DNA of 64,000 nt from a virus. Its lineage: Duplodnaviria > Heunggongvirae > Uroviricota > Caudoviricetes. Of this stretch, positions 12,001 through 15,000 are shown one piece after another. The stretch lies in IMG/VR virus record IMGVR_UViG_2531839193_000016. One strand, given 5' to 3'. Within the stretch, counting starts at the first letter, position 1; every line of letters begins with the position of its first letter. The position numbers were made by a program.

Positions 12001-15000
12001 GCCGACCGGTGAAACCACGGCACTGATTCTGGAAATGTCCCGCGCCCTGATGTACCGCCGTCTGCGTGCTGCCACCGAATCCCTGAACAGCGACAGCGAT
12101 GTGGATATGCGCCTTATTAAGGACATCCTCCTGTCGGCACAGCGTGCGGAAAGTGCCGCCGAGCGCAGCATTAAGCGTGAAAAAGAAATCCGGGCCGCAT
12201 TTGCTGAAGAGATGGCGAACGCCGTCACCGACGAGTTGCGCGGCGTGGATGGCATGAGCGAGCAGATAGAATTCCGTATCAGGCAGATGCTGCTTGGTAA
12301 GGCGTAGGAGGTGAATCGTGGTAACAGATAACCGCTCACTGATGAGTAGTGCTCATCAGAAGGCATTCAGTCTTGCAACACAGTTACCTCCTGAAACCAT
12401 AAAAGCGTGTCGTGAGTTGACTGAACTCAGCATTGCCGGGGAAATATCCCTGGAACAACTGCATTCGCTGCTGGCAGAGGCTGTCACTGATGAGTTGAGT
12501 GGCGTGGACGTGATGACTGAAGAGCTTGAGTTCCGAATCAAAAGCATTCTGACAGGTAAAGCCTGATGAACAAAGCCAAAGAAACGTCTCCTTCACTGAT
12601 ACAAATGACGCCTCCCCGCAAAATTGATCTGTCCGGTGAAAAAGCCCTGCTGGGCGTGGATGTGCCGGACAGACTTGATTTGCCCGGTGATATGCCGGTG
12701 TTTCTGGATTATCAGGCCCGCTGGTTTGAGGATGAAAGTCAGGTCTGCATTGCGGAAAAATCCCGCCGCACCGGTCTTACCTGGGCGGAAGCCGGGCGTA
12801 ACGTCATTACTGCTGCAAAACCGAAGCGTCGTGGTGGCCGCAATGTGTTTTATGTGGGATCAAAGCAGGAGATGGCGCTGGAATATATTTCTGCCTGCGC
12901 CCTGTTCTCCCGCGCCTTTAACCAGCTGGCGGATGCTGATGTGTATGAGCAGACCTTCTGGGATCGGGATAAAAAAGAAGAAATTCTGACCTACATGATC
13001 CGCTTTCCGAACAGTGGATTCAAAATTCAGGCACTGTCTTCCCGTCCGTCAAACCTGCGCGGCCTTCAGGGGGATGTGGTGATTGATGAAGCCGCGTTCC
13101 ACGAGTCACTGGATGAGCTTCTCAAGGCGGCAATGGCGCTCACTATGTGGGGCGCGCGCGTGCGTATTATCTCCACGCATAACGGCGTCGATAATCTGTT
13201 TAATCAGTACATTCAGGAAGCCCGCGAGGGGCGCAAGGATTACAGCGTCCACCGCATAACCCTGGATGATGCCATTGCGGACGGGCTGTACCGTCGTATC
13301 TGTTACGTCACCGATCAGGAATGGTCACCGGAAAGCGAGCAGAAATGGCGTGATGATCTCTACAAAAACGCCCCGACCCGTGAGGATGCCGACGAGGAAT
13401 ACGGCTGTATCCCGAAAAAATCCGGCGGTGCCTATATTCCTCACGCGCTTATTGAAATGGCGATGATCCGCGACATCCCGATTCTGACGTTTGAAGCCCC
13501 GGACAACTTCATCAGCCGTGCCGCATGGCTGCGTGAATCGGAAGTTTTAACCTGGTGTGAAGAACATTTAAAACCGCTTTTAGAGAAATTAAATCCCCGT
13601 TCCCGCTTCAGCTTCGGGGAAGACTTTGCCCGCACCGGTGACCTGTCCTGCTTTGTGCTGCTGGAAATCACCGAATCCCTGGCAAAGCGCGAGGTGTTTC
13701 GCGTGGAGCTGCGCAACCTGCCGTATGCCCAGCAGGAACAGGTGATGATGTACATCCTGACCCGCGTTCCGGCGCTGGTCGGTGCGGCGTTCGACGCCAC
13801 CGGTAACGGCGGCTATCTGGCAGAAGCCGCACTGCTGGCCTTTGGCCCGGACATCATCGACTGCGTGATGTTGTCGCCGAAGTGGTACGGCGAGTGGATG
13901 CCAAAACTGAAAGCCGAGTTTGAAGATCAGAATATCCTCGTCGCCCGCCATCAGACCACGCTTGATGATTTGCGCCATGTGAAGGTGGTGAATGGTATCC
14001 CGCAAATCGACAAGGGGCGCACGAAGGACCAGAACGCAACGGCTGCGAACGCCCGCCGCCATGGTGATTTTGCCGTGGCACTCTGTATGGCAAACCGGGC
14101 GTCATACATGGAGGGATTCATCCTGGATGAATCAGCCTGTCAGGCGCTGCCGGAGCGGTCGCGGGCAATGGAGGGCGGTTATCGTGATGACGATGAGGCA
14201 TATCATGAATTTGAACGGGGGTGCTGGTAGTGGGACGCATAATTGATCTTGACGGAAAACCTCTCTCCTTTGACCCGGAGATGCAGAGTACCGCGCTGGA
14301 TATTCCGCAGATTGCCAGCCGTTATGTTGAGCATCCCGCCTCGGGTATCACCCCGAACCGGGCGGCGCAGTGCCTTCGGGGGGCTGAACGTGGCGACCTG
14401 ATTGCCCAGTCCGATCTGGCGGCTGACATTGAAGAAAAGGACACCCACCTTTTTGCGGAGCTGGGCAAGCGACGTCTTGCCATTCAGGGGGTGCCATGGA
14501 GTATTGAGCCGCCACCGAACGCCAGCGCGAATGAGAAAAAGGACGCGGAAATGCTCGACGAATATCTGCATTCCGCAGACTGGTTTGATGCCATGCTGTT
14601 TGACGCCACGGATGCCATCCTGAAGGGCTATTCCTGCATGGAAATTGAGCACGGGATGCTCGGTAAAATGCACATCATCCGCGCCATCCGCTGGCGTGAC
14701 AGCGGGCATTTCTGCCTTAACCCGGATGATTTGAGCGAACTGCGGCTGCGTGACGGCAGCCATGCCGGGGTGGCGTTTCAGCCTTTTGGCTGGATAGTGC
14801 ATCAGTCACGTTCACGGACCGGTTACGGTGGCGCAACGGGGCTTGTCAGGACGCTTATCTGGCCGTTCATTTTCAAAAACTATTCCGTGCGCGATCTGGC
14901 CGAATTTCTGGAGGTGTACGGACTGCCGATGAAGGTCGGGAAATACCCGTCCGGGGCAACACCGGAGCAGAAAAGCGCCCTGATGCGGGCGGTGATGGAT

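Follow-up and report, generated by a model that had tools for sequence, protein, structure and literature searches.

What is the small open reading frame (ORF) that lies between the gp27-like gene and the gene for the large terminase subunit (TerL) in a Mu-like prophage? We analyzed 64,000 nucleotides of the IMG/VR virus record IMGVR_UViG_2531839193_000016 (Caudoviricetes), which we will call the window. The initial annotation of the window pointed to an 82-codon ORF with a strong Shine-Dalgarno (SD) sequence, whose last 30 or so residues seemed to be a diverged copy of the C terminus of the gp27-like protein, a putative small terminase subunit (TerS). Judging from sequence comparisons, this mini-ORF is a chimera: a fragment from near the N terminus of the minor head protein MuF/gp30 (residues 30–84, approximately) is joined to an old copy of gp27's C-terminal tail, which has since diverged. 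The features that the argument rests on are:

11726–12307, + strand: gp27-like gene, putative TerS, 193 amino acids (PF11985, PHROG 426)

12212–12304, + strand: tail copy 1, residues 163–193 of gp27, MANAVTDELRGVDGMSEQIEFRIRQMLLGKA (found by BLASTP against the tail of the mini-ORF)

12306–12313, + strand: SD sequence of the mini-ORF, AGGAGGTG (read from the sequence)

12318–12566, + strand: mini-ORF, 82 amino acids, with a GTG start and a TGA stop that shares its last base with the ATG of TerL at 12566

12318–12482, + strand: N-terminal module "X" of the mini-ORF, residues 1–55, with three predicted helices; an apparent remote paralogue of the N-terminal helices of MuF/gp30

12471–12563, + strand: tail copy 2, residues 52–82 of the mini-ORF, LAEAVTDELSGVDVMTEELEFRIKSILTGKA (found by BLASTP and by DNA and profile comparisons)

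12566–14230, + strand: TerL (Mu gp28-like), 554 amino acids (PHROG 2)

15893–16048, + strand: residues 31–82 of MuF/gp30, the segment homologous to X (found by hhalign and tblastn)

Comparing the gp27-like gene (11726–12307) to the mini-ORF (12318–12566) confirmed that their tails are similar, both as DNA and as protein. By BLASTP, residues 163–193 of gp27 align without gaps to residues 52–82 of the mini-ORF, with 20 of 31 residues identical and 26 of 31 positive (E = 1e-12). At the DNA level, 63 of 96 bases are identical, and the local alignment score is 43, versus 14.6 ± 2.3 (maximum 24) in 500 shuffles. Similarly, with a profile built from 25 diverse gp27 homologues, residues 57–82 of the mini-ORF align with residues 168–193 of gp27 (profile positions 167–192; probability 90.5%, E = 1.4e-6). 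The initial annotation had allowed that the similarity might be confined to low-complexity sequence, but the shared tail is not low-complexity: it is a specific motif, AV[TS][DE]ELRG.DG[MI]SE.LE.RI..LLGKA, that is conserved in the gp27 family from Mu to Vibrio phages, although three of its conserved residues are replaced in the mini-ORF (see below). Only the tail of the mini-ORF aligns to gp27, and there is no match to the whole domain of PF11985 (173 model positions).

We think that the tail was duplicated long ago. Between copy 1 and copy 2, synonymous sites are saturated (the proportion of synonymous sites that differ, pS, is 0.78), while the corresponding value for nonsynonymous sites (pN) is 0.20 and amino-acid identity is 65%. 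This suggests an old duplication, after which selection maintained the peptide in the mini-ORF, but more loosely than in gp27 itself. Among the alleles examined, the amino acids of copy 1 are identical, with synonymous changes only, and copy 2 has 4–5 amino-acid changes.

Module X comes from another family, which comprises PHROG 30922 and its relatives from Salmonella. The members of this family are found at the gp27/TerL junction of some Mu-like prophages of E. coli and Salmonella, and most of them lack the gp27 tail. For instance, at the same junction of a metagenomic Mu-like contig (L010), and with the same SD sequence, we found a 67-residue protein (P0012) that matches PHROG 30922 (2.6e-14) and is 54% identical to residues 1–55 of the mini-ORF. 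P0012 ends in AHAQSSRRGKT and a stop codon, without a gp27 tail, and is followed by a 120-nt spacer and then by a TerL with a different N terminus. We will refer to loci with X and the gp27 tail as type A and to loci with the tail-less X of L010 as type B. In Salmonella-type Mu-like loci (L036, L039, and L040), X proteins of 65 or 87 amino acids are encoded at the gp27/TerL junction. These are similar to residues 4–51 of the mini-ORF (BLASTP, 5.6e-6; hhalign, E = 3.3e-5), and comparing their profiles to gp27 gave no match (E = 0.097 and 0.01, with probabilities below 5%). The mini-ORF's similarity to the tail-less X proteins ends at around residue 55, where the similarity to the gp27 tail begins (A-x-A, then VTDEL). 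The X family is under purifying selection, with a ratio of pN to pS (pN/pS) of 0.41 (p = 0.005).

We also considered that X might be a degenerate helix-turn-helix or pre-tail region of gp27. We rejected this because BLASTP and hhalign match only the tail of the mini-ORF to gp27 and the Salmonella X proteins do not match gp27. Nor did we find support for a degenerate gp27 tail in the 87-residue X protein from Salmonella, which ends in AKARAEGLRGAELYLFVRYFVGKTS: the DNA score of 16, versus 13.9 ± 2.0, was reached by 101 of 500 shuffles. Also, hhalign found no match between the 87-residue protein and gp27, and its likeness to the gp27/TerL junction is confined to the last 14 nt or so.

Several comparisons link X to MuF. 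First, the 65-residue X protein from Salmonella matches PHROG 220, "minor head protein and DNA pilot" (2.9e-5). Second, we compared X to a MuF profile, for which we aligned the first 120 residues of gp30/MuF homologues. By hhalign, residues 4–58 of the 65-residue subfamily of X align with residues 30–84 of MuF (probability 93.9%, E = 1.6e-7), and the whole X family gives a similar result (probability 94.2%, E = 1.2e-7). The score between X and MuF is 43.9, versus 11.3 ± 2.1 (maximum 19) with shuffled columns; none of 200 shuffles reached it, and reversed profiles gave no match. Third, when we used tblastn to compare the 65-residue X protein to 50,697 phage genomes, it hit only gene 30 of Mu-type phages (residues 32–79, 39.6% identity, E = 6e-4). 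Fourth, the predicted helices agree in register: the helices of the mini-ORF in its AF2 model are at residues 4–22, 25–39, and 45–60 (pLDDT 72), and those of MuF are at 33–69 and 73–86. Finally, X and the MuF/SPP1 gp7 family (PF04233) have the motifs H-x3-F-x2-A and G-I-S in common.

The mini-ORF is not itself a MuF protein. It has no Pfam match, and the homology is limited to residues ~30–84 of gp30, that is, to the helices that precede and begin the MuF domain (judging from the alignment registers, about a quarter of the Pfam model, at its N-terminal end). It is encoded upstream of TerL, while the true MuF gene follows the portal gene. Because only fragments match, the mini-ORF falls outside both the gp27 and the MuF families of Pfam. 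Neither the chimeric make-up nor the links to gp27 and MuF are recorded in PHROG 30922, into which the mini-ORF had already been clustered. We found no description in the literature of a phage mini-protein made from a TerS tail and a MuF fragment, although no search was aimed at this point.

Is the mini-ORF a gene? The coordinates, SD sequence, and start codon that were first assigned to it were verified, as was its placement between the gp27-like gene and TerL. The SD sequence overlaps the TAG stop codon of gp27 (12305–12307) and is separated from the start codon by 5 nt; every type A and type B relative has kept it. We collected nine distinct alleles of the mini-ORF from virus contigs and complete genomes, with up to 20% amino-acid divergence. 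All nine have the SD sequence and 82 intact codons, and the start codon is GTG in four of them and ATG in the other five, without any change in position. So the possibility that the ORF would be stop-ridden in close relatives, which the initial annotation had raised against its own suggestion, was not borne out: the ORF is intact wherever it is present. For the two most divergent alleles (synonymous differences Sd = 13.5; nonsynonymous differences Nd = 18.5), pN/pS is 0.43 for the whole mini-ORF (binomial p = 0.011). For the tail alone it is 0.24 (p = 0.034), with a range of 0.24–0.30 between alleles. The N terminus evolves quickly, as residues 2–17 are hypervariable and 9 of these 16 residues differ between alleles.

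The mini-ORF is a full-length match to PHROG 30922 (1.1e-55, positions 1–82 of 82), a family of unknown function. It has no match in Pfam (even at E ≤ 10), NCBIfam, or PADLOC, and a fold search of BFVD with the AF2 model gave no match at E ≤ 0.001; sequence searches of the PDB were uninformative as well. From the SD sequence, the start codon, and pN/pS, we conclude that the mini-ORF is a real protein-coding gene, an accessory gene of the late block, whose product is predicted to be translated.

The mini-ORF is rare. Its unique 5' part is present in 25 of 5,426 complete genomes of E. coli, always between gp27 and TerL, and nine IMG/VR contigs have the mini-ORF at this location as well. About 200 further E. 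coli genomes have related Mu-like prophages in which the stop codon of gp27 directly overlaps the start of TerL and there is no mini-ORF. It is also absent from Mu, D108, SfMu, the O157-type Mu-like prophages, and the Mu-like phage that is inserted in two Stx phages. (The latter are the Stx-converting phage genomes LC727881.1 and LC727895.1, in which the insertion of a Mu-like phage lacking the mini-ORF is annotated.) So the idea that other Mu-like genomes would carry it held only in part: 25 E. coli genomes have it and the nine alleles are intact, but some close relatives lack it. When we searched 1.84 billion representative proteins with a profile, there were just five matches, which implies that the 82-residue form is confined to E. 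coli-type sequences. Scanning genome contigs for distant relatives of the mini-ORF found nothing, and X with a tail was not found outside of E. coli. The mini-ORF is dispensable for this type of phage as a whole.

The window is 100% identical to E. coli JE86-ST05 (NZ_AP022815.1), which has the prophage segment at three locations, and JE86-ST02 and strain 48 have the segment at two locations each; having multiple copies per genome suggests recent transposition. Besides JE86-ST05, type A lysogens include E. coli FORC_043 and M18. In short assemblies (metagenome and Logan contigs), we noticed four rare variants of the mini-ORF (P0002, P0003, P0010, and P0011), which may be real or may be assembly errors. 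Two of these have in-frame deletions of 2–3 residues exactly at the junction of X and the tail, one is frameshifted (59 amino acids), and one has an unrelated C-terminal half.

With few exceptions, the Mu-like loci have an ATGA or −4 overlap between TerL and the gene before it (overlaps of −1 or −4 are usual in Mu-like phages), and mostly this gene is gp27, joined directly to TerL. The mini-ORF has taken over that same gp27/TerL junction, GGTAAAGCCTGATG, and TerL's own SD sequence is weak. Given the ATGA overlap, we predict that the start of TerL is translationally coupled to the stop of the mini-ORF. The junction is also a recurrent insertion site, with unrelated small genes in different Mu-like lineages. 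One encodes a 63–68-residue protein of PHROG 1761/5120, of unknown function (L077:3076–3400, L083:2093–2299, and 3082–3288 in both L084 and L087), and another encodes a 55-residue hydrophobic protein that is likely in the membrane (3052–3219 in both L088 and L091); neither is related to X. At two type B loci (L020:3082–3115 and L025:2476–2509), a deletion has joined the SD sequence and the first four codons (MATD) to the sequence just before TerL, which shows that the X gene can be lost cleanly. Using the window's gp27, with its GKA-type tail (see below), as the query, we found no independent duplications of the tail in 79 IMG/VR loci; for lineages with GIA-type tails, the coverage was limited to inspecting the ORFs at those junctions that have an insertion.

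What might the borrowed tail do? The tails of the gp27 family are of two types, ...ELRG.DG.SE.LE.RI..LLGKA (GKA-type, as in the window) and ...IVKQAG.TAE.A..I...ILGIA (GIA-type). Starting from the gp27 homologues in loci L001–L094, we could classify 87 loci. The GKA-type tail occurs with the window's type of TerL at all 43 of its loci (this type being defined by a core identity of at least 72% and an alignable N-terminal 45 amino acids), and the GIA-type tail occurs with the other type of TerL at 44 of 44. The identities of the gp27 bodies overlap between the two classes: the type of the tail follows the type of TerL, not the body. There are even recombinants, with a GIA-like body and a GKA tail at three loci (L009, L053, and L059) and the reverse at L048. 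(The likely recombination point is KREKEIRAAFA, an invariant stretch directly before the tail.) The tail is also the most conserved part of gp27. In phages lambda and P22, the C terminus of TerS binds the N terminus of TerL (PMC9611059). Given this precedent, the conservation of the tail, and its travel with the type of TerL, we infer that the gp27 tail is a TerL-docking peptide. Like the gp27 tail, the docking parts of lambda gpNu1 and P22 gp3 are short C-terminal segments, which dock on the N-terminal region of TerL. Unlike those systems, to which the gp27 tail has no sequence relationship, the tail is found here on a separate 82-residue protein as well, without the putative parts for DNA binding and oligomerization.

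We tentatively favor the view that the mini-ORF encodes an accessory late protein, a chimera that reaches TerL through its borrowed gp27 tail and modulates the terminase. Translated from its own strong SD sequence, it would be made together with TerL, whose gene is next in the late operon, and would bind TerL at or near the site for the TerS tail. Because it lacks the body of gp27, with its putative functions in DNA binding and oligomerization, it would affect the assembly of TerS with TerL rather than the recognition of DNA: it might compete with gp27, or it might hold TerL. Members of the MuF family bind the portal, as has been shown for SPP1 gp7 (PMC5576092; PMC6316719), so the mini-protein might gain another contact through its MuF-like module, with whatever this module binds.

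Several observations weigh against this proposal. The link to MuF is transitive, through the Salmonella X proteins: for the E. coli mini-ORF by itself, the alignment to MuF has the same register but is not significant (E = 0.034). The pN/pS of the flanking genes is 0.01–0.2, versus about 0.4 for the mini-ORF, and selection is 3–10 times weaker on the mini-ORF than on gp27 or TerL. The tail of the mini-ORF has also lost residues that are conserved in gp27. In all alleles of the mini-ORF, the invariant Gly176 of gp27 is replaced by Val65, the near-invariant Leu190 is replaced by Thr79, and the conserved Arg of ELRG is replaced by Ser61. Gly176 and Leu190 are two of the five most conserved positions in the gp27 tail, and copy 2 may no longer bind as gp27 does. 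As most X proteins have no tail, the function of X does not require one. The tail of gp27 is physically adjacent to TerL, so their co-segregation could be plain linkage. And there are close relatives that lack the gene altogether or have it deleted (L020 and L025), and the gene is missing from all of the collection's isolated, plaque-forming phages.

We weighed four other explanations. The first is the main rival, although we consider it rather unlikely: the mini-ORF could be a recombination scar, in which an X gene was illegitimately joined to the 3' end of gp27 from a phage without an insert, and the tail peptide is not under selection. The frame would stay open only so that ribosomes arrive at the TGA overlapping TerL's ATG. 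This fits the nearly universal ATGA or −4 overlap upstream of TerL, which the mini-ORF keeps exactly (GGTAAAGCCTGATG), and the weak SD sequence of TerL itself. The high pN/pS relative to the flanking genes and the lost tail residues are also as expected for a scar. In addition, the junction is a hot spot for the gain and loss of unrelated small genes, and X works without a tail in Salmonella. However, coupling accounts for the open frame and for the last ~15 nt, but not for the conservation of amino acids across the tail (pN/pS of 0.24–0.30). Even with saturated synonymous sites, the tail has retained 65% identity and the pattern of an amphipathic helix. Also, TerL at the type B locus has its own spacer and start and is not coupled.

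The second alternative is a moron-like accessory gene whose function lies in the MuF-like N-terminal module, so that the tail is incidental and does not dock on the terminase. Such a protein might hinder or aid interactions of MuF or the portal, or might act in competition between Mu-like phages. We consider this unlikely, although X proteins exist without a tail in Salmonella and at type B loci, the X family is under purifying selection, the rapidly-changing N terminus would suit a conflict or an interaction interface, and other unrelated small genes are found at the gp27/TerL junction. On the other side, the mini-ORF does not match the defense and anti-defense models of PADLOC (or Pfam or NCBIfam), there is no promoter that would express it from a repressed prophage, and the amino acids of the tail are conserved in all nine alleles.

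A more elaborate version of our proposal seems doubtful to us: the mini-protein could be a bivalent mimic, with the docking peptide of TerS and the portal- or procapsid-binding segment of MuF, that bridges or gates the meeting of the motor and the portal. The same doubt covers a variant of this idea in which the mimic is a dominant-negative agent against co-resident Mu-like phages. If the bivalent mimic were real, it would be a third, regulatory subunit associated with the terminase, which arose by an exon-shuffling-like recombination of the phage's own genes.

Last, the initial annotation had suggested the remnant of a partial duplication, and a decaying, non-functional pseudogene from a tandem partial duplication of gp27 is very improbable and, on the sequences compared here, largely refuted: the tail does directly repeat the end of its upstream neighbor, gp27, and some close relatives without the segment have a mosaic single tail (the 5' half like copy 1 and the 3' half like copy 2), as if by a deletion from recombination between repeats, but residues 1–55 have no similarity to gp27 and come from another family, there are no stops or frameshifts in the nine alleles, the SD sequence and start are conserved, pN/pS is below 1, and a pseudogene from so old a duplication (pS = 0.78) would have decayed. 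The mosaic can be read in more than one way. The single tail of insert-less E. coli prophages is nearer to copy 1 in its first half (42–45 of 48) and nearer to copy 2 in its second half (38–39 versus 32–33 of 48), and neither half is near-identical to a copy. A deletion between repeats and a shared constraint from the overlapping start of TerL explain this pattern equally well.

To return to our favored proposal of a terminase modulator, the mini-protein can be compared to the small proteins of phage satellites that bind a terminase subunit. These include Rpp from the phage-inducible chromosomal islands of E. coli and Ppi and the satellite TerS from the pathogenicity islands of Staphylococcus aureus. 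Proteins such as Rpp and Ppi bind the TerS of the helper phage and hijack or block packaging. By description, the mini-protein differs from the satellite modulators in that it is encoded by the phage, within the phage's terminase operon, and in that its target would be TerL, reached via a peptide derived from TerS. The third, small terminase subunit of herpesviruses is also among the functionally nearest known things. MuF proteins are modular and serve to direct cargo to the capsid by way of the portal (PMC5576092, PMC6316719). As to its location, the mini-ORF resembles ORFs 3–5 of SPP1, which are small, non-essential ORFs between the terminase and portal genes (PMC6316719): it too is a small, lineage-specific gene at a junction between head and packaging modules. 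Unlike SPP1-type insertions, it appears to be built from the phage's own packaging and head genes and not from foreign DNA.

The terminases of Mu-type phages are poorly characterized, and gp27 is a small terminase by prediction only. As a natural experiment, the locus sets the last ~30 residues of gp27 apart from the rest, on another protein, and the co-segregation of the tail and TerL predicts that these residues dock on TerL. The locus also shows that fragments of packaging and head proteins (the N terminus of MuF and the tail of TerS) can recombine into new small late proteins. If the mini-protein does bind TerL, then it would be a phage-encoded modulator of the phage's own terminase and could serve as a probe or inhibitor of packaging in Mu-like phages. 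If it does not, it would exemplify chimeric ORFs at module junctions that are kept intact by translational coupling.

The window contains a Mu-like prophage, with the late genes (for lysis and for the head) in a block on the + strand around the mini-ORF. The gp27-like protein is 57% identical to Mu gp27 (family alignment) and matches PF11985 (Phage_Mu_Gp27, 3.5e-33) and PHROG 426 ("terminase small subunit", 6.5e-55). In Mu, the tail is ~57% identical by tblastn. By its sequence and by its site directly upstream of TerL, the gp27-like protein is a putative small terminase, and the order of genes is as in Mu. TerL matches PHROG 2 ("terminase large subunit", 1.9e-43) and is 72% identical to Mu gp28 by tblastn over the matched portion, which begins at query residue 10 and excludes the variable N terminus. 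Searches of the PDB by sequence found no solved relatives of gp27 or TerL. The genes are tightly packed, and scanning the neighborhood of the mini-ORF found no promoter or terminator; Rfam has no match within 11000–13500 at E ≤ 1. The other genes of the block are:

9251–9673, + strand: Mor-like gene (the Mor match in Pfam is on the equivalent gene of relative L010)

9745–10245, + strand: lysozyme gene, followed by the spanin region

10855–11148, + strand: TraR/DksA zinc-finger gene

11129–11440, + strand: DUF2730 gene

11433–11723, + strand: gp26-like gene

14221–15819, + strand: portal gene

15803–17134, + strand: MuF/gp30 minor head protein gene (PF04233 over residues 58–187 of gp30)

The beginning of TerL is variable. 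Over codons 1–18 (12566–12620 in the window), the first 17 or so are hypervariable among prophages that are otherwise 92–97% identical. The variants of the start include MNKAKETSPSLIQMTPP, MNNAEELSPLLTNTVST, and MSKRTGEEKIKPDTGLIKLSPP, and conservation begins abruptly at PRKIDL.

Opposite gp27 and the mini-ORF, there are three open frames on the − strand: 11635–12366 (243 amino acids), 12356–12547 (63 amino acids), and 12384–12596 (70 amino acids). We saw no start signal and no match to a family for these frames, and we treated them as by-products of the composition of the coding strand. Beyond the Mu-like prophage, at 46000–64000 and downstream of it, the window has a second block of long ORFs, on the − strand, such as 49047–52136 (1,029 amino acids) and 52782–56279 (1,165 amino acids).

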